From a virus, in IMG/VR virus record IMGVR_UViG_3300048091_000425: a stretch of DNA of 64,000 bases; one strand, 5' to 3'. How positions within the stretch are numbered: the first letter of the stretch is position 1; each line of letters opens with the position of its first letter. The notes below the pieces were generated by a model. It did not search any database and was not told the origin of the DNA. It saw nothing but the letters and a program-made list of their open reading frames with translations. This document shows, one piece after another, positions 1,221-57,272 of this stretch. The position numbers and the translations under genes are program-made.

Positions 1221-2159
1221 TTAACGCGCAGCAGCTTTGTATTCGAGCTGCTTGCCAAAGAATTCACGCAGATAAGAGCTCATCTGTTCTTTGGAGTTTG
1301 GCCAATCTGCATGCCAGGCATCCTGCAGGGCCACCCGGTCTGGGTTTTCGCAATCAGGGTGGAGCAAATTCAGGAAATCATTTCCCCAAACAGTTATCAC
1401 GGCTAACCCATGCTGAAACGCCAGCAACCCCATGTTTCGCAATTTTATTTGAGAGCGGCCTGAGCCCACCCATTCTTTCCCAGAAGAGAGATTTTCCGCC
1501 ATGAAATAACGTTTCCTGATCCAATACAGGAACTGCAGGGAGTATTCATCCATTCTAGGATTAGAATCGTCGACACCGACTTTACGCAGGCAATCCGTTA
1601 ACAAGGCCTGCGAATTGATGTTGAAATTGTAATCGAAGAAGTGCCTTGCCCTGCCCTTGGCAGACCACTGACGGTACTTTGGATCCTCAGTCGTCGTGAT
1701 CTCCAGTACTCTACAGATCTTCGACTCCCATATGGCGGTCAGGATCAGCGCCGGGCGCTCCCTTCTCGCTTCCTCGGCGCCAAGGCAATGGGTGAGCAGT
1801 ACCTCGAAACTATTTGCACCTGAAAAGCCTGGGTGGGCTGCAAACCAGATCTCGCCGGCGCTTTTAATTACCTGGAAAGGATCAAGTTCTGTTTTTTCAA
1901 GCTCACCGTTCAGCAGCTCGACCACAAAGTCAGATTTAGCCCATTCCGAGTCGCGGAGCTTCCAGCCAGGTTCACCCACGTAGGGATAGTCGGCTTCGGT
2001 CAAACCCTCTGGGTATCGAAACTCAAAGAGCGCGAGAGACCGCGTGTAGACCACGAGGACTTGGCGCCCAGGCCAGCGTTCAGCCGCAAAAGGGGCAATA
2101 TCGCGAGCATTGTCACGACCTTCCATTACCAGAACGACGTTCGACTGTGAAACTTCCAT
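1221..2159 (-). CDS. Degenerate Toprim/topoisomerase-IA-derived protein (paralogue of 2228-3214)
   Basis: Collinear with the upstream paralogue (FEFRYP, FFDYNFNINS, LHPDCE); acidic motifs altered (MEGR for LEKP, HPGFSG for DPDHSG). Confidence 0.75.
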   Translation of the reverse strand: MEVSQSNVVLVMEGRDNARDIAPFAAERWPGRQVLVVYTRSLALFEFRYPEGLTEADYPYVGEPGWKLRDSEWAKSDFVVELLNGELEKTELDPFQVIKSAGEIWFAAHPGFSGANSFEVLLTHCLGAEEARRERPALILTAIWESKICRVLEITTTEDPKYRQWSAKGRARHFFDYNFNINSQALLTDCLRKVGVDDSNPRMDEYSLQFLYWIRKRYFMAENLSSGKEWVGSGRSQIKLRNMGLLAFQHGLAVITVWGNDFLNLLHPDCENPDRVALQDAWHADWPNSKEQMSSYLREFFGKQLEYKAAAR

Positions 2160-2227
2160 GACCCTTTTCCTTTTAAAATGGTGATATTCAAGTTCAGCAC
2201 TGCGCCAGCGTCTGGCGCAGATAACAA

Positions 2228-3214
2228 TCAGCGAGCCGGCTTGAACCGGGCTTGCTTGCCGAAAAAGGTGCGCAGGTAGCGGGTCATGGGGGCTTTAGTG
2301 TTCGGCCAATCCGCTTGCCAGGCCGCCAGCCTGGCCGACAGGTCAGGATCTTCGCAGTCCGGGTGCAACTGATTCAGGAAGTCATTCCCACGGTCGGTTA
2401 TGACGATCAGCTTTTCTTGAAAAGCAGTTAACCCGGCTGTCCGCAACTGAGTGATGATGGAGGCTCTAGACGCCGGCGAACCTATTTCGAAGGGCTCGTA
2501 GCGGCCTGTTCCAGTCCATTTATCCATTGACCAACAGATCCGGCCCTCGGAGAGTGGTTGCTGGCCCCGCAGCCAGTACAGAAGCTGCAAGGCGTACTTG
2601 CTCATGCCGAAGCCTGACGTGTCGACCCCTACTTTACGCAGGCAATCGCCGAACAAGGCCAGCGAGTTCACGTTGAAGTTGTAGTCGAAAAACCGCTTTG
2701 CCGAACCACGGTTCGACCAGTCACGGTATTTCGGATCCGCAGTCGTCGTCGGCGTGGCCAACATCCGAACAATGTCCGCATCAGCCATTGACCTAAAGAT
2801 CAGCGCAGGGTGCTCCTTGGCCGCCACGTCAGCACCGAAACACTGGGCCAGCAGCACATCGAAGGCATTTGCACCCGAGTGGTCAGGGTCGCACGCAAAC
2901 CAGACCTCACCCGCACTTTTGACTACATGGAAAGGGTCAAGGCCTGATTTGACGATCTCGCCATTGACGAACTCGACCGTAAAACTCGCTTCCGGCCACC
3001 CAAAATCTCTTACTTTCCAGGAAGGTTCCCCTACAAATGGAAAGTCGGTGTGGGATAAACCGCGAGGATAACGAAATTCGTAGAGACCCAGGTAGAAGGT
3101 ATAAACCGCGAAGACTTTTCGGCCCGGCCAGCGATCAGCCACAAAAGGGGCGATGGCGCGTGTCTGCATGGGTTTTTCGAGGACGAGCACAATGCTCGGT
3201 TGAGTTGTTTCCAT
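2228..3214 (-). CDS. Topoisomerase IA/III-derived protein: Toprim plus domain IV, lacking domains II/III
   Basis: VLVLEKP, ACDPDHSG (cf. DxDREG), KRFFDYNFNVNS (cf. R..D...G.N.S), IGSPASRASII..L (cf. GTPATRA.II..L), T.RG; only 328 aa. Confidence 0.8.
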   Translation of the reverse strand: METTQPSIVLVLEKPMQTRAIAPFVADRWPGRKVFAVYTFYLGLYEFRYPRGLSHTDFPFVGEPSWKVRDFGWPEASFTVEFVNGEIVKSGLDPFHVVKSAGEVWFACDPDHSGANAFDVLLAQCFGADVAAKEHPALIFRSMADADIVRMLATPTTTADPKYRDWSNRGSAKRFFDYNFNVNSLALFGDCLRKVGVDTSGFGMSKYALQLLYWLRGQQPLSEGRICWSMDKWTGTGRYEPFEIGSPASRASIITQLRTAGLTAFQEKLIVITDRGNDFLNQLHPDCEDPDLSARLAAWQADWPNTKAPMTRYLRTFFGKQARFKPAR

Positions 3215-3368
3215 GATCCGTACTCCTGATTCAGGAAGGTGGGTAAAGCACGGCTTAGCCGTGGACTGCGTGCAATTTATACCAATTGTTAGGCTATGAA
3301 AAGGCCATTTGGCATCATTTTATGGACTTGTCATGCGTCAAGTGCAAAGTATCGATTGAGTACAGTGT

Positions 3369-8060: not shown

Positions 8061-8716
8061 TCACTTGATCCCGATTCGTTGAGCCTCAGGGCGGCTTCAA
8101 TTTCAGCTATGAATGCTTCTGAGAAAGAGTGCCCTGCGATGAGTTGAGCTTCATCGAGCAATTTGGCAAGAGCCGCGTTGCTCCGCTCGACGGCGGCCAG
8201 ACGCTGCTGCAGCGCGTCCTCACGATCAATGGATAACTCGAGACACTGTTGAGTAGTGTCGCGCTGTTCCAGAAGCCTTGTTATCTCGGACTGGGCATCC
8301 TTAAGCCGGATCAGGGGCTCGATGCTGTAGAAGCCAGGGGTGCTCGGCTGCTCCTGGATCTTGTCATCTACCCATGGCACTTTCCGGTAAGCCTTGACCT
8401 CTGCCATTTCCGCAGAAGGGGTGCATTCCCGGCCAACGATTTGAAATACCACCGGCCCCTGGCGCTCCACGACTTGGGAGGGCTTCTCAGGGAAAGGCCA
8501 AAGCTCAATGTCCAACTCCGCTTTGCAGTGGGGGCAGTCACCGTCCGCATCCGCCCTGCTCGCCATCGTCACTGGAACCTTGCAGCTCCAGCAGGGCCAG
8601 GAGTTTGGGTGGGCAGCGAGTATTGCACGCAACTCTGGCCCGATTGGGGACACGAGGCGCATCTCATAAGCCCAGCGCTGCAGCACCTCCCGCCCCAGTT
8701 CGATCTTATTGCTCAT
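8057..8716 (-). CDS. Phage-like modular protein with zinc ribbon
   Basis: CWSC...CPHC; 'VVERQ' module; likely start MSNKI at 8716. Confidence 0.6.
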   Translation of the reverse strand: MSNKIELGREVLQRWAYEMRLVSPIGPELRAILAAHPNSWPCWSCKVPVTMASRADADGDCPHCKAELDIELWPFPEKPSQVVERQGPVVFQIVGRECTPSAEMAEVKAYRKVPWVDDKIQEQPSTPGFYSIEPLIRLKDAQSEITRLLEQRDTTQQCLELSIDREDALQQRLAAVERSNAALAKLLDEAQLIAGHSFSEAFIAEIEAALRLNESGSSE

Positions 8717-9494
8717 GGCTATCCCCTGCTTTGTTTTGGCCCACTGCAAGCGGCGCTGGCTGTCTTACAGCTGCACGCCATACCTCAAGCGCTGCACCTT
8801 TAAGTCCCTCGAAGCGGAACACGTCACGCAGCATCTGTTCGTTTGCCTCGAACCATGGCTCCACGTCCGCCCAAGTGGTTTGTTTCACCACCGGCACTGG
8901 AGGCAAATCCTTGCACCTGTCGAGATAGGATAGAAGTGTTGCGGCGGCGCAGCTCAACATCCCGCTTTCGAAAACTTGTTGATCAAGCCAGTACGCCAGG
9001 GCGGTCACTCGCTGTTCTTCTGTTTCAGCATTCGCACTGTCATGCACGGCTTGCTTGAGCTTTTCGGTAACCACCGATTCCGGCTCGGGCCGCAGGGCGA
9101 ACTCTTTGTACGCAACCCACAAACCCTGGACATATTCATCGGCATAGCCTTGAAGGTCATCGCTGCGAGCAAGTGATCGGTCGTCGAGAAACCCGAAAAC
9201 CGGGTGTTTCGTCGCCATTACCCATTTCTGGAAAGGCTCACAATCCCCTGGCAGAGGCTCTTGGCGCTCGACGACTGGGGCGGCGCGAGTGTTCCATTCA
9301 GCAATCAAGCGGAGCTTTTCGTCGGGGTGATCGCTGTCCGTGTTCGCAGTGCTGCTGTTACGCGGGAACACGCATTTCTGGTCGTGTTCCCCATAGATGC
9401 GGTGACCAGTGGATCGCCCGCTTTCAATGCGCATTTGGCAGTCGCAGAACGGACACGGCGCCAGCTCCTTCGATATTTCAATGCTTGCGTTCAT
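8706..9494 (-). CDS. Lar (restriction-alleviation)-like N-terminal domain, modular protein
   Basis: ELAPCPFC ... AEWNTRA, the typical Lar pattern. Confidence 0.55.
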   Translation of the reverse strand: MNASIEISKELAPCPFCDCQMRIESGRSTGHRIYGEHDQKCVFPRNSSTANTDSDHPDEKLRLIAEWNTRAAPVVERQEPLPGDCEPFQKWVMATKHPVFGFLDDRSLARSDDLQGYADEYVQGLWVAYKEFALRPEPESVVTEKLKQAVHDSANAETEEQRVTALAYWLDQQVFESGMLSCAAATLLSYLDRCKDLPPVPVVKQTTWADVEPWFEANEQMLRDVFRFEGLKGAALEVWRAAVRQPAPLAVGQNKAGDSHEQ

Positions 9495-13587: not shown

Positions 13588-14319
13588 TTAAGCGGCTGCC
13601 CAGGCCATCGCCCGGTCAAAGTCAGTTTCGCTCATCGGCACACCGGTTCGGCAGATCCTCAGGAAGGCGTGCTTGGCTTCCTCTGGGGTCGCATCGACAA
13701 TCACGGTCAAAGTGACACGGGCGTTGCCGAAAGCCTCGGAGGCCCGGCCAAAAAGATCGGCCATCTCTTCGACACCTTCCCTTCCCTGAGCATCCATCTC
13801 CCGCAGCAGCTTCATGGCCCGCTGATAAATTTCCGTAGAGACGCTGCTCATGACCGTCCAGGCCGGCAGGCACATCGACTTTTTTGCGACCTTATGACTC
13901 ACAAACTTCATGGACTGAGAAGCCAGATCCAGCACCAGGCACTGATTGCCTAGAAACATATGCTCTGAGGGAGAGTAGTCCAGGGCTGGCGCCGGCCCTT
14001 CCAGCATCAGCCAAGCCAAGGTAGCCAGACGGTGCTGACCGTCGAGCAACAGCGCCACCGTTTTCCATTTCTCGCCATCGTGGGACAGAGAAATAGGCCC
14101 CAACCGGGTTTTGGCGATCTTGGACAGATCTGCCTTGTCTTCTGGCTGCCACATCAGCATGCCGCCCACCGGGAAGCCTGACAGAATCGAATCGCACAAG
14201 GCCTCAACGTCGCTCCTGTCCCACTGATAGGGGCGCTGCATCGCTGCAGGCATCATCCGGCCTGATTTGACGTCAGCCAGCAGAGAGGGCAAGAAAGTTG
14301 TGCTCAGTACGGTTCGCAT
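13588..14319 (-). CDS. Stand-alone DUF262 (GmrS/ParB-like) domain protein
   Basis: QRPYQW, LCDSILSGFPVGGML.W, LLDGQHRL.TL motifs. Confidence 0.85.
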   Translation of the reverse strand: MRTVLSTTFLPSLLADVKSGRMMPAAMQRPYQWDRSDVEALCDSILSGFPVGGMLMWQPEDKADLSKIAKTRLGPISLSHDGEKWKTVALLLDGQHRLATLAWLMLEGPAPALDYSPSEHMFLGNQCLVLDLASQSMKFVSHKVAKKSMCLPAWTVMSSVSTEIYQRAMKLLREMDAQGREGVEEMADLFGRASEAFGNARVTLTVIVDATPEEAKHAFLRICRTGVPMSETDFDRAMAWAAA

Positions 14320-17563: not shown

Positions 17564-18355
17564 TTACTGCGCTTTGCCAGCCAGCGCTTTTGGAACCAAA
17601 CGATCCGGTGGGCTGTAGCCACCCATCATCTCACCGCTCTCCAGGTAAATGGTCGGCGTACCGCGCACACCCAGCAACTTGCCGAGTTCATACTGCGCCG
17701 CCACTTGGTTATCGCATGTCAGTTTCGCAATTGGGGTCTCGCCAGTGGCGTCATCCATAGCCTTGCGGGCATCTGGCGCACACCAGACGCTGACCATCTT
17801 CTGGTAGGTCTCGCTCTCCAGCCCCATACGCGGGAACGCCAGGTATCGGACTTCAATGCCCTGAGCGTTCAGCGCCGGCACGTCGTCGTGCAGTTTCGCG
17901 CAATACGGGCAATCAACATCCGTGAATACCGTGATGGTGGCTTTGCGGTTGGCAGCCGGGTAGATCACCATGTCCGACTCTTTCAGGCCTTTCAGCTTTT
18001 GCACTGCAACCTTCTTCTGGGCCTCATCGGTGACGTTGACGATGGCGCCGTCGACATTCTTGAAGAGGTTTCCTGCGAAGATATAAGCCCCATCCTCGGT
18101 GGCATACAGCGGGCGACCGCTGGCCAGTTCTACGGAGTACAGGCCGGCAATATCCGACTTCTGGATCGACGTGACACTCACGTCATTCTGAAGGATCTTC
18201 AGCGTGGCCATGATCTTGTCGTCATGGCGCGATTCGACCTTTTGTGGGGCAGCAGGGGCCTTCAAGACGTTACTGTTGCTTACATACCAAGCCGCAGACA
18301 CGCCAAGAAGGACGACCACCGTCGAAACCAGTGTGGATCTTTTAAGTGTTGCCAT
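17564..18355 (-). CDS. dsbC: Thiol:disulfide isomerase DsbC family
   Basis: FTDVDCPYC active site, cis-Pro GTPT, N-terminal dimerisation domain and membrane/signal segment; start MATLK at 18355. Confidence 0.9.
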   Translation of the reverse strand: MATLKRSTLVSTVVVLLGVSAAWYVSNSNVLKAPAAPQKVESRHDDKIMATLKILQNDVSVTSIQKSDIAGLYSVELASGRPLYATEDGAYIFAGNLFKNVDGAIVNVTDEAQKKVAVQKLKGLKESDMVIYPAANRKATITVFTDVDCPYCAKLHDDVPALNAQGIEVRYLAFPRMGLESETYQKMVSVWCAPDARKAMDDATGETPIAKLTCDNQVAAQYELGKLLGVRGTPTIYLESGEMMGGYSPPDRLVPKALAGKAQ

Positions 18356-18450
18356 TAAATTCTCCGAATAAACTGAGCGGGTTCTGTTTTGGATCTGATA
18401 TTGCGTATATATTGACAAGGATAACAAAAACACATTCATTCCGGTGATTC

Positions 18451-22483: not shown

Positions 22484-22988
22484 TCACGGCTTAACCTGGG
22501 CTTGAACAGCCTTTGGCATTGGCGGGATGTTCAGCATTTTCGGTGGCGGAAGATCCTTCAGAGGCACTGTTTCGGGTTTGGCTGGCGGTGTACGCTCCCG
22601 GCCCACAATCTTGATCTTGCTGGCCTCAAACACGCAGAACCACTCCTCGTCCTCCAGCTTGATGCGCAAACCGTCATAACCGCTCGACTTCCACTTGCAC
22701 AGGTGCCGCCAAATGGTCTCCCCACGCGCTGTCCGCAGGTAGTACAGAAACTTCTTTGGCGTGACCTTCTTGAGCTTGAGCCCGCCGAGGTCAGCGGCAA
22801 CAACCGATGGTGTGTTCGGAGCACGGCCCGCTTCGTAGCCGTTGCTGGCCCAGCGCCAGGCGCCGGCAACCACGTCAGTGAAGAAGAACCCCATCTGAGT
22901 CGTCGGATTGTCACAGCTCACGCCGAGGTTTTTGCTGTCAAACCGGTCAAATTCGAAGTTCGTCCCATGGTACGCAATCAGGCTGGAA
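22484..22988 (-). pseudogene. ADP-ribosyltransferase-like (ART-PolyVal-type) gene body, separated from its first 11 nt (24999-25009) by IS605
   Basis: YHGT..F..F, GFFFT, GYDG, EEW..VF...IK motifs; rejoining the flanks gives ATG GAA ATG ACT TCC AGC CTG ATT GCG TAC CAT GGG ACG (171 aa). Confidence 0.75.
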
Positions 22989-23105
22989 CTGAGTATCCCC
23001 ATGGATGAATCAAGGGGGTTCTGAAGGTGAATCCTACGGGGTGTCCAACTTGCGCTGGCTGTGACCGTAGGCGACCCTTCTTTACGTACCATCCGCTCTG
23101 CCGGC

Positions 23106-24503
23106 CTACGCCGGGGCCGTGGCATGAGCCACGACACTCGCAGATTGATTTTTCCATAGCCCGGTACGTCGCAGCACACACTCTTGAGCTGCCAGCACCT
23201 TAGCGATGCCGGGGGAACTATGGATCTTGCCATCTGTGCAAAACGCCAGCAACGCCGAGTACACGTCACGCTGAATCAGCCCGCTGCCATCGCCAAAGGC
23301 GTGCCAGCGCAGCGATAGCGGTTTTTTCGTGTAAGTCTCGGTGCAGTGATCGTATTGCGACATCTTGAGCCTCCAGGTATCCAACTCGACCACCTTGCCG
23401 CCAGCACTTTCAGCCTTGCGTTTCAGGTGGTTGACGAAATAGCCCGGTGCCCGGTTCCTCACCGACTTTCCGAACATCTTCTGGAAAGCCTTGTATGACA
23501 ATTTTTCGATATTCCAGGTATTTGCCTGCTTGAGCAGGTTGTTTACCAATTCGCCATGCTCGCTTTTTCGTAGTCCCTGCAGGGCCCTTTCGGTGTTAGC
23601 GATCTGCCGGCGAACGTCGAGCAAGCGATTCGAACTCGCAAGGCGCTGGCCTTTTATCCAGCGGCCTTTTTCATCGAAACAGTGTGGATTGGTAGCCCTG
23701 ACAGACCGATCTGCTTTTCGCTGCAGGCGGCGCAAGGTCTTGGCGCACGGGTCTACGCCGGGACAAAACTTCTGGAGAGAAGCGCCAGTATCACTGAAGC
23801 TGGCGACCGTGGAAGGGCCGATATCCAGGCCACCCGAGGCATTGACCGACTCACAGGTAACCGGAGGCTTTCCTTCAATCGTGAGCTGGACTAAAAACCG
23901 TTTCTTGCCGTTGATATTTCGCCACACAACGCGGGAGAACTTCACCCGGCCAGCCAGAGCCTCATCCAGATATTCATCTTTCCCTGGCGCTGGAAGGATG
24001 ACCGGCATCAGCAAGCCAGCCCACTGGACGCACGCAGTTTCTGGCACGTAGCGGATGGCGGAAGCGGAGCTCTTACCTTCAATCGAGTGCAGGGGCCGCT
24101 TGCGGCCCTTGAAGCGTGGCAGGCCGCGCTTCTTGAAACTGTATTCATCCAGGGCTGAGAAAACACGCTTGGCCAGGGTCTGTGGCTCGTGGGCGCCGAG
24201 GTGATCACGCCAAAGGCGGTTTTTCAGCCCCGTCCCAAACGAAGACAGTGCGTATTCCGAAAAACCATAGGTATCGCGCAGAGATTTGTAGCCGGCGCGT
24301 TTGGCCAAGATATCTTTGACATCCCGCAGCTCTGTCCACAGAGGGTCTCTGCGCATGGCCTTGAGACGACCAATCCCCTCTGACAGCAGTGCATTGTACA
24401 GTCGTTTTGCAGCCTCGAACCGCTTGCGCATCACCGCCACGTCGCGACCTTTGGTCACGAGCGGCAGGGTGATGACGAAACTCGGTGTCTTGGCTTTTTT
24501 CAT
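23106..24503 (-). CDS. tnpB: TnpB RNA-guided nuclease
   Basis: RuvC D (GLDIGP), E (NIEKL), D (QRDVYSA) intact. Confidence 0.9.
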   Translation of the reverse strand: MKKAKTPSFVITLPLVTKGRDVAVMRKRFEAAKRLYNALLSEGIGRLKAMRRDPLWTELRDVKDILAKRAGYKSLRDTYGFSEYALSSFGTGLKNRLWRDHLGAHEPQTLAKRVFSALDEYSFKKRGLPRFKGRKRPLHSIEGKSSASAIRYVPETACVQWAGLLMPVILPAPGKDEYLDEALAGRVKFSRVVWRNINGKKRFLVQLTIEGKPPVTCESVNASGGLDIGPSTVASFSDTGASLQKFCPGVDPCAKTLRRLQRKADRSVRATNPHCFDEKGRWIKGQRLASSNRLLDVRRQIANTERALQGLRKSEHGELVNNLLKQANTWNIEKLSYKAFQKMFGKSVRNRAPGYFVNHLKRKAESAGGKVVELDTWRLKMSQYDHCTETYTKKPLSLRWHAFGDGSGLIQRDVYSALLAFCTDGKIHSSPGIAKVLAAQECVLRRTGLWKNQSASVVAHATAPA

Positions 24504-55981: not shown

Positions 55982-57272
55982 CCAGTCCTAGCCTTGGAAA
56001 CCCCTTCCTTCAGGTGGGGGAGGAAAAGGCTTCAATGAAGTTGAAATTAGTTGTACATATATACAGCATTATGCAATAGTCAATTTATGACAAAACGCGC
56101 CTACAAATATAGGTTTTACCCTACTCAAGAGCAGGTTTTGCTCCTGGAGAAAACCTTTGGCTGCGTTCGATTCGTATACAATCATGTCCTGAATTTCAGG
56201 TCAAAACAATACTCAGAAAATGCCGTTCGAATTGGCTTCACACAGGCCAATGCTGAGCTCACTCGCCTGAAAAAAGACCCTGAAAAATCCTGGCTCTCAG
56301 AGGTCTCATGCGTGCCGCTTCAGCAGGTGCTACGGCACCAGCAGACCGCTTTCACAAATTTCTTCGAAAAACGCGCTGGATACCCATCCTTCAAGAAAAA
56401 GCACCATCGGCAGTCGGCTGAGTTCACGCGCAGCGCGTTCAAGTATGTCGGCGGCCAACTGTTCATGGCCAAGAGCAAAATCCCCCTGAATATCCGCTGG
56501 AGCCGCGAGCTGCCCAGCGATCCGTCGACCGTCACGATTTCCAAGGATTGGGCCGGGCGCTACTTCGTGTCCATGCTTTGCGAATTCACACCAGAAGCGC
56601 TACCTGTGACACCGGAAATGGTTGGAATCGACCTTGGCTTGACCCACCTATTTATCCGTGACGACGGCAAGAAAGAAGAAAATCCAAAACACACGGCCCG
56701 CTACGCGGCCCGATTGGCGCTGCTCCAGCGCCGGCTGTCAAAGAAAAAGCTGGGCTCTGCGAATCGCCAGAAGGCGAAGCGCAAGGTGGCCAAGTTGCAC
56801 GCGAAGATTGCCGATACTCGCCAGGACAACCTTCACCAGGTGTCACGCAGATTGATCAACGAAAACCAAGTGATCTGTGTCGAGTCTCTTAAAATCAAAA
56901 ATATGGTAAAAAACCGTCGATTATCCAAGGCTATAAGTGATGCCGGTTGGGGAGAATTTATCCGCCAGCTGGACTACAAAGGCACTTGGGCTGGTCGTCA
57001 GCTGGTCAAAATTGACCAATGGGCGCCCAGTAGCAAGAAATGCTCTTGCTGCGGTCACGTGATGGAAAAGATGCCGCTGAATGTTCGATTCTGGACGTGC
57101 CCTGCCTGCCAGGAAAAGCACGACCGCGATGTGAACGCAGCGCGAAATATTAGAGCCGTGGGACTCACGGTGCTAGCCTGTGGAGAGGCCAGAAGTCCAA
57201 ACGCTCTAGCAGCGTAAGGCAGGCCTCTGCGAAGCAGGAATCCCCTTCTCTTCAGGGAGGGGAGGATGTCAA
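55982..57272 (+). mobile_element. IS1341-type (tnpB-only) IS200/IS605 element
   Basis: Left guide GAAA at +16..+19 predicts target TCAT (55978-55981, seen); right guide GAAT with end TCAA (57269-57272); hairpins CCCCTTCCTTCAGGTGGGGG and CCCCTTCTCTTCAGGGAGGGG. Confidence 0.92.
56087..57217 (+). CDS. tnpB: TnpB RNA-guided nuclease
   Basis: AYKYRFYPT start, GIDLG, VESL, CSCCG/CPAC Zn finger, DRDVNAA. Confidence 0.95.
   Translation: MTKRAYKYRFYPTQEQVLLLEKTFGCVRFVYNHVLNFRSKQYSENAVRIGFTQANAELTRLKKDPEKSWLSEVSCVPLQQVLRHQQTAFTNFFEKRAGYPSFKKKHHRQSAEFTRSAFKYVGGQLFMAKSKIPLNIRWSRELPSDPSTVTISKDWAGRYFVSMLCEFTPEALPVTPEMVGIDLGLTHLFIRDDGKKEENPKHTARYAARLALLQRRLSKKKLGSANRQKAKRKVAKLHAKIADTRQDNLHQVSRRLINENQVICVESLKIKNMVKNRRLSKAISDAGWGEFIRQLDYKGTWAGRQLVKIDQWAPSSKKCSCCGHVMEKMPLNVRFWTCPACQEKHDRDVNAARNIRAVGLTVLACGEARSPNALAA

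Follow-up and report, generated by a model that had tools for sequence, protein, structure and literature searches.

A mobile-element-borne family of type IA topoisomerase derivatives without the gate and tyrosine domains

We analysed a 64,000-nucleotide stretch of viral DNA (IMG/VR record IMGVR_UViG_3300048091_000425, hereafter the window) and followed up one of its genes, a Pseudomonas megaplasmid gene that encodes a well-conserved protein of 328 amino acids (aa). The protein has the fold of a topoisomerase III-type enzyme reduced to domain I (Toprim) and domain IV: the motifs of these two domains are retained, and domains II and III are deleted. It belongs to a family that evolves under purifying selection and is distributed mainly on mobile elements. 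On balance, we somewhat favor the view that the 328-aa protein uses the groove of its parent enzyme to act on single-stranded or gapped plasmid DNA.

Fold and missing domains

The open reading frame (ORF) begins with ATG, 8 nt downstream of an AGGAG ribosome-binding site. The gene and its motifs, numbered along the window and along the protein, are the following.

2228..3214, minus strand: gene for the gate-less type IA (topoisomerase III-like) protein with Toprim domain I and domain IV, from the ORF, the AlphaFold2 (AF2) model, the TopB superposition and the ratio of nonsynonymous to synonymous substitution rates (dN/dS)
3170..3178, minus strand: EKP (E13, K14, P15; residues 13-15), the Toprim glutamate and neighboring lysine, from the hhalign alignment to TopB 'CEKPS'
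2873..2890, minus strand: DPDHSG (D109, D111; residues 109-114), the Toprim DxD metal site, aligned to TopB 'DADREG'
2663..2701, minus strand: AKRFFDYNFNVNS (residues 172-184), first domain IV helix and counterpart of the type IA R..D..(L/I)xG groove motif for single-stranded DNA (ssDNA), from the hidden Markov model (HMM) alignment to TopB 160-180
2561..2602, minus strand: junction of the excised domains II and III (SKYALQLLY, LRGQ, QPLSEGRI), from the local alignment of residues 213-294 with residues 483-572 of the TopB of genome G001
2462..2482, minus strand: GSPASRA (residues 245-251), the type IA 'G(T/R)P(A/S)T(R/Y)A' groove motif of domain IV, matching 'GLGTEATRA' in TopB 520-530
2339..2368, minus strand: LHPDCEDPDL, a family-specific, near-invariant His/Cys/acidic motif at the position of TopB 'LPEMATRPDM'
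2252..2281, minus strand: RYLRTFFGKQ, the best-conserved stretch of the family, in the C-terminal helix, from conservation in 250 members

The AF2 model is confident, with a mean predicted local distance difference test (pLDDT) score of 93.9 and a predicted template modeling score (pTM) of 0.90. VIA-align superposed it on Escherichia coli topoisomerase III (1i7d_A) with Z 24.7 and a root-mean-square deviation of 3.0 Å over 302 of the 328 residues, at 17% identity. In this superposition, residues 7-328 of the model are spread over positions 1-613 of the chain, and domains II and III are skipped. TopA structures came next, with Z 18-20. The significant Foldseek matches in the Protein Data Bank (E ≤ 1e-3) were exclusively type IA topoisomerases or reverse gyrases, and topoisomerases of 647-945 aa in the ESM Atlas matched the model with template modeling (TM) scores by query of 0.79-0.81. 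The structural and profile match to type IA topoisomerases is far beyond chance.

Profile comparisons located the deletion. A profile built from 26 family members matched E. coli TopB (E 2.7e-5) in two blocks, 63-189 on TopB 61-187 and 236-289 on TopB 520-572, so that TopB residues from about 188 to 519 (~330 aa) have no counterpart in the family. With hhalign, residues 9-196 of the protein aligned to residues 6-185 of the TopB of the nearest genome, G001, at 94% probability. Matches to standard models fell below their cut-offs (14 bits against 35.1 for PF01131; 21.2 bits against 515.75 for TIGR01056, topB) and cover just residues 220-296 or 244-295; PF01751 was not among the matches listed in the Pfam search of the protein.

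A preliminary description, made from the letters of the window, had proposed that the tyrosine-bearing domains II and III are deleted and that the structure would superpose on domains I and IV. The two-block TopB match and the superposition over chain positions 1-613 agree with the deletion, and the superposition holds with AF2, Foldseek, VIA-align and the ESM Atlas. All of the motifs it cited (EKP, DPDHSG, AKRFFDYNFNVNS and GSPASRA) lie where it had placed them. E13 and D109-P-D111 align with the EKP and DxD motifs of TopB, and AKRFFDYNFNVNS and GSPASRA align with the groove motifs of its domain IV; where the type IA DxDxE motif has its third acid, the 328-aa protein has Ser. The description was right that only a short gap separates the last two motifs; by our measurement it spans ~60 aa, not ~55 aa.

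Local alignment mapped the junction to residues 213-225. Here SKYALQLLY runs via LRGQ directly into QPLSEGRICWSM, which aligns with the 'PPKPFTEGDLIKAM' segment ('PPxPxTE..L') by which TopB returns from domain II into domain IV. Judging by its position, SKYxLQ would be the counterpart of the type IA 'SxGRVQ..L' helix, through which the chain enters domain II. In the alignment, the two hinge strands appear to have been in effect ligated, with the removal of about 280-330 residues that include the YPR[ST]D tyrosine. No domain III segment with the YPR[ST]D active-site tyrosine was found in the 328-aa protein by alignment; the three full-length type IA enzymes of G001 have ITYPR(S/T)D, with Y[P]R[ST]D at residue 290, ~330 and ~335. 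There is also no room left for a domain II arch, since the 302 residues aligned over chain positions 1-613 mean that the whole protein is accounted for by domains I and IV.

We considered two tyrosines as relocated catalytic residues. Y49, in the only YPR of the protein ('YPRG'), was rejected: its alignment partner in TopB is the structural 'RYKRW' loop, and 20% of family members have a hydrophobic residue (L, F, I or V) in its place. Y313 is probably structural because it aligns with an aromatic position in the last core helix of a full-length plasmid type IA enzyme.

In type IA enzymes, the groove for ssDNA and the Mg2+ site are built from domains I and IV; the tyrosine sits in domain III, which together with domain II makes up the gate. 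Because the gate and tyrosine domains are gone, we conclude with high confidence that the 328-aa protein cannot be a topoisomerase. Automated annotation has named some family members 'type IA DNA topoisomerase' in database records; such names misstate the function and make plasmid topoisomerases seem more numerous than they are.

Compared with bacterial TopB (TIGR01056; PF01751 plus PF01131), including TraE of plasmid RP4, the family has in common the fold of domains I (Toprim) and IV, with E. coli TopB as the best structural match, and the EKP, DxD, Y..W..LP..P..W loop, GxxxS(T)RA and PPxPxTE motifs. It differs from TopB in lacking the about 280-330 residues of the domain II arch and of domain III with YPR(S/T)D, in lacking the C-terminal extension, in having Ser as the third Toprim acid, and in carrying its own HPDCxDxD and RYxxTFFGKQ motifs. 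Type IA enzymes are defined by the domain II/III protein gate and the active-site tyrosine, and the family is a natural dissection of such an enzyme. It shows that a module of domains I and IV is stable and selectable by itself, and it makes a minimal system available in which ssDNA recognition and Toprim chemistry can be studied apart from strand passage.

We found no description of the gate-less family in a literature search, and profile searches found no Pfam, NCBIfam, PHROGs or PADLOC model for it. The family is a domain-deleted type IA derivative that may be regarded as analogous in spirit to Mini-A, the viral proteins resembling the A subunit of type IIB topoisomerases (Takahashi et al. 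2020, PMC7671362). In the sections of that paper considered here, Mini-A proteins are, like the present family, shortened stand-alone topoisomerase derivatives with Toprim that occur on mobile elements and whose function is not established. They belong, however, to the unrelated type IIB lineage and keep the catalytic tyrosine (5Y-CAP), whereas the family described here belongs to type IA and no longer has its tyrosine domain. The same sections count the type IA topoisomerase genes of plasmids pMPPla107 and pBASL58 and do not mention the gate-less family; in our search of PLSDB, both plasmids carry it.

Conservation, paralogues and distribution of the family

An exhaustive search of representative sequences yielded 477 clusters (50% identity) at E ≤ 1e-3, of which 351 were retained at E ≤ 1e-10. 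Nearly all members are 310-360 aa long, with a median of 332 aa. The dN/dS values against orthologues are 0.15-0.20, indicating purifying selection.

We assessed conservation in 250 aligned family members. In domain I, position 13 is E or D in 92% and K14 is present in 84%; D109 is kept in 80% and D111 in 74%, and the full acidic triad is found in 68%. The third-acid position is Ser or Thr in most members. In domain IV, the GSxxS motif occurs in 93% (G245 and S249, 94% each), F176 in 96%, and N183, K206 and Q210 jointly in 87% (99%, 95% and 91%, respectively). The C-terminal part is the most uniform: H284, D289 and W299 are present in 98% each, D291 in 94%, C287 in 88%, F318 in 99% and Q321 in 95%, and Y313 is found in all 250. 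The triad losses are scattered over diverged members, and the members from Flavobacterium and Microvirga have zero Toprim acids and retain the domain IV motifs. Since the groove is kept more strictly than the triad, the family-wide function most likely depends on the groove and not on metal chemistry; in members with the triad intact, which are the majority and include the 328-aa copy, metal chemistry may matter as well.

A 7482-aa protein with 42 'stretches' (P0187) was rejected as a false match: it consists of repeats with many Ala, Thr, Ser and Asp residues, and its 'VWFRAAPDHE' units mimic the Toprim strand. A dedicated search for longer fused forms found none, which is weak evidence; the only one known is a protein of 1006 aa (P0164, L011:4590-7610). 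This protein combines the family domain with a C-terminal region of ~680 aa that has no Pfam or Atlas match, and its gene adjoins those of ArdC and a DnaB-type helicase. The model of the 328-aa protein also matched a 415-aa 'DNA topoisomerase' of an uncultured phage (BFVD A0A6J5S849), with a TM score by query of 0.62 across 367 columns. A complete type IA core would need more residues than this, so the phage protein may be another compact variant.

The 328-aa gene is followed directly by a paralogue.

1221..2159, minus strand: tandem paralogue of 312 aa, directly downstream, 54% identical to the 328-aa protein by sequence comparison

The Toprim domain of this paralogue is degenerate (EGR and HPGFSG, with DPD changed to HPG), and a 14-aa deletion takes out GSPASRA. 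Its Toprim-dead lineage is conserved at 75-83% identity across three elements (the window and two other megaplasmid contigs) with dN/dS of 0.21-0.30, and is therefore maintained and not decaying. Copy number varies from one to three: related megaplasmid contigs have three tandem copies (327-347 and 311-314 aa), the window has two and G001 has one. The tandem arrays of related megaplasmids mix intact and Toprim-dead paralogues. A homodimer prediction for two copies of the 328-aa protein returned a score of 0.00, which is no evidence either way.

The hosts are mostly Pseudomonadota, in which the family occurs on megaplasmids, on conjugative plasmids and in regions resembling integrative and conjugative elements; a small Flavobacterium clade is added to these. 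The first 6 kb of the window are 82% identical over 71% to a 1.17-Mb plasmid of Pseudomonas silesiensis. Among the 72,556 plasmids of PLSDB, 17 carry the family and 10 of these exceed 400 kb; besides pMPPla107 and pBASL58, the carriers include Vibrio plasmids of 880-940 kb and Variovorax plasmids. The family was detected in only one of the 201 Pseudomonas species genomes searched and is therefore accessory; it was detected in two of the 151 Flavobacterium genomes searched. The Flavobacterium copies (L018:8001-8993, L019 and L020) are Toprim-dead and sit among housekeeping genes, at a syntenic chromosomal locus with pgk, LysM/SLT, DUF4837, GNAT and S41 peptidase genes. In 50,697 phage records the sole match was a 313-aa protein annotated as hypothetical (L031:5995-6936; 26.5% identity over 98% of the query) of the 209-kb jumbo cyanophage Dolichospermum phage Dfl-JY45 (PP438435.1).

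The proteobacterial neighborhoods are of conjugative-element type, with ArdC/MPTase-PolyVal genes. Other neighbors include SSB, SNF2 helicases and type IV CRISPR genes; thin-pilus (type IV pilus)/shufflon, TraW and IcmW genes; Rep3, ParA, KfrA, relaxase and HU; and further mobile-element genes, namely ParB-type helix-turn-helix (HTH), orphan methylase, Lar, GmrSD_N and ART-PolyVal. On an Acinetobacter plasmid the gene order is relaxase, type IV coupling protein (T4CP), TraF peptidase, SLT, a 1451-aa ArdC-primase polyvalent protein and then the family member. The Acinetobacter gene thus lies within the relaxase/T4CP/primase transfer-gene cluster, at a place comparable to that of traE, the plasmid topoisomerase III gene, in RP4. 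The family marks megaplasmids (pMPPla107, pBASL58, Vibrio, Variovorax) and conjugative elements, and may reveal an unrecognized ssDNA-handling step in transfer or in the maintenance of very large replicons.

Possible function and alternative explanations

The 328-aa protein derives from a topoisomerase III-type enzyme of which domain I (with E13, K14, D109 and D111) and both parts of domain IV are left; the arch of domain II and the tyrosine-bearing domain III have been excised at two adjacent hinge strands. It thus retains the groove that holds ssDNA and the Mg2+ site at the groove end, and has lost the means to form a 5'-phosphotyrosine bond, to open a gate and to move a strand through it. 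Our proposal is that the protein is no longer a topoisomerase and would instead bind ssDNA of large plasmids and conjugative elements. It would act whenever such an element has single strands or gaps, be it in transfer and establishment or while a very large replicon is being copied, and it would occupy or protect the ssDNA. The analysis establishes fold and deletion, motif retention, selection and the mobile-element distribution; ssDNA binding is suggested by the conservation of the groove motifs, and the biological role in transfer, establishment or replication is speculative. Mg2+-dependent hydrolytic nicking is possible in copies with an intact Toprim domain, not as the function of the whole family. 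The preliminary description had proposed a compact module for binding ssDNA and metal without strand passage, and this fits all of the data; of the roles it listed, that of an ssDNA sensor or protector is the best fit, as ssDNA binding or protection.

Several observations weigh against this proposal. E, K and DxD are kept in two thirds of the members, including the 328-aa copy, and this retention suggests that the metal site matters in those members. The near-invariant HPDCxDxD and RYxxTFFGKQ motifs are not explained by simple ssDNA binding. The link to conjugation rests on gene context: MOB-suite typed 13 of the 17 PLSDB carrier plasmids as non-mobilizable, and one Burkholderia scaffold has no obvious mobile-element genes around its family member. 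A more ambitious version of the proposal is that a topoisomerase III was turned into a new class of plasmid factor, either a gate-less ssDNA clamp or a Toprim nickase, that acts on single-stranded plasmid DNA (in transfer, establishment or megaplasmid replication) and is kept in diversifying tandem arrays of intact and dead paralogues. We regard this version as doubtful; if it were true, such diversifying arrays would be expected of genes in an arms race with host defenses.

The alternative that we take most seriously, while still thinking it rather unlikely, is that the protein is a Toprim-type hydrolytic ssDNA endonuclease or nickase. Without domain III, the would-be scissile phosphate near the Mg2+ site would be open to water, and a topoisomerase would have turned into a nuclease of the kind seen in the OLD family or RNase M5. 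E13, K14, D109 and D111 are intact in the 328-aa copy and in 68% of the members, the modeled groove would bring ssDNA to the metal site, and the tandem mixture of intact and dead copies on related megaplasmids is compatible with such an activity. However, the triad is lost in one third of the members, which are still conserved and include the single-copy Flavobacterium genes; the third acid of DxDxE is Ser or Thr in most members; and the nuclease families of PADLOC and PHROGs gave no match. The OLD and RNase M5 enzymes would resemble the family in using a Toprim metal site without a catalytic tyrosine, and they provide a possible working model for the Toprim-intact members. Beyond the Toprim fold they appear to have nothing in common with it: the top structural matches of the 328-aa protein are topoisomerases only, the ATPase domain of OLD cannot fit in 328 aa, and the protein has no PADLOC or PHROGs match. 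The suggestion of a Toprim nuclease in the preliminary description is therefore weakened as a pure nuclease by the loss of the triad in about one third of the members, and metal-dependent nicking may still occur in intact copies. We consider it improbable, to a greater degree, that the protein is a competitive decoy or inhibitor of host TopA/TopB or of defense nucleases acting on ssDNA, and so an anti-defense or host-manipulation factor. Its gene does lie among anti-restriction and polyvalent-protein genes, and close relatives carry one to three copies with diverged paralogues. Type IA enzymes are monomeric, though, so there is no oligomer to poison, and the corresponding megaplasmid of G001 encodes two full-length type IA enzymes that would be hindered too.

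The remaining explanations carry little weight. A MarR-like winged-helix regulator that binds double-stranded DNA and keeps a relic Toprim domain is very improbable: residues 174-320 reach Z 7-8 to MarR-family structures and one database source names a relative 'HTH marR-type domain-containing protein', but Z 7-8 is a background level far under the topoisomerase matches (Z 18-25), the conserved residues are those of the type IA ssDNA-groove motifs, and there is no MarR Pfam match. The idea of a recent truncation or decaying pseudogene of a plasmid topB or traE draws solely on the missing domains. We consider it refuted by the hundreds of diverged homologues of the same length, the dN/dS of 0.15-0.20 and the compact, confident model; the homologues form a stable, old family of ~325 aa, which does not support truncation of a full-length topB.

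The preliminary description had also raised the option that the protein is half of a split type IA topoisomerase whose domains II and III come from another gene. We regard this as largely refuted and scarcely credible. An all-versus-all ORF comparison around 17 loci found no neighbor common beyond close relatives. A six-frame PF01131 scan of G001 recovered the chromosomal TopA and TopB, two full-length plasmid enzymes (766 and 572 aa) that both have a Toprim domain and a tyrosine of their own, and the family orthologue; it found no stand-alone domain II/III gene. The one finding in favor of a split enzyme is a 475-aa protein (P0151, L006:8001-9428) on a plasmid contig, whose C-terminal segment resembles domain III (PF01131 positions 119-248, E 6e-15). 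Its catalytic motif is ITPPRTE, with Pro in place of Tyr, and a search of 5.8 billion proteins found no relatives of the segment. In the AF2 model of this protein, the C-terminal 140 residues have pLDDT < 50 and are uninformative on docking to domains I and IV. A phmmer search with three full-length topoisomerases and this C-terminus against all ORFs of the window found nothing, at a sensitivity so low that the 328-aa gene itself was missed.

The 572-aa enzyme of G001 (contig C1, L004:799-2517, minus strand) is itself a compact full-length type IA enzyme. It has a Toprim domain, the SYPRTDS tyrosine and a GRPST motif, its PF01131 match is limited to profile positions 3-225, and the 766-aa type IA enzyme is encoded ~20 kb away.

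Local features and neighboring genes in the window

Two further features flank the 328-aa gene.

3314..3341, minus strand: sigma-70-like promoter-type site TTGACG-16-AATGAT upstream of the gene, a consensus match and weak evidence
2200..2220, minus strand: perfect hairpin with a 9-bp stem and a 3-nt loop between the 328-aa gene and its paralogue downstream, seen in the sequence itself

Promoter-like consensus sites were found three times, against 2.1 expected by chance. The hairpin lies in the 68-bp spacer between the paralogues; it has no T-run and was not called as a terminator in the terminator/promoter scan; a role in attenuation or RNA processing is conceivable.

The immediate neighbors of the 328-aa gene had no match in Pfam, PHROGs or PADLOC. 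The following genes with assigned families are found within 20 kb of it.

8706-9494, minus strand: Lar-like restriction-alleviation gene
13588-14319, minus strand: GmrSD_N/DUF262 gene
17564-18439, minus strand: DsbC-like gene
22484-23269, minus strand: ART-PolyVal gene

These genes are set among many small ORFs without an assigned family, and the stretch resembles the establishment/anti-defense region of a conjugative megaplasmid. Farther along the window, an IS605-family OrfB/TnpB gene with HTH_OrfB_IS605, OrfB_IS605 and Cas12f1-like TNB domains lies at 56051-57217 on the plus strand.

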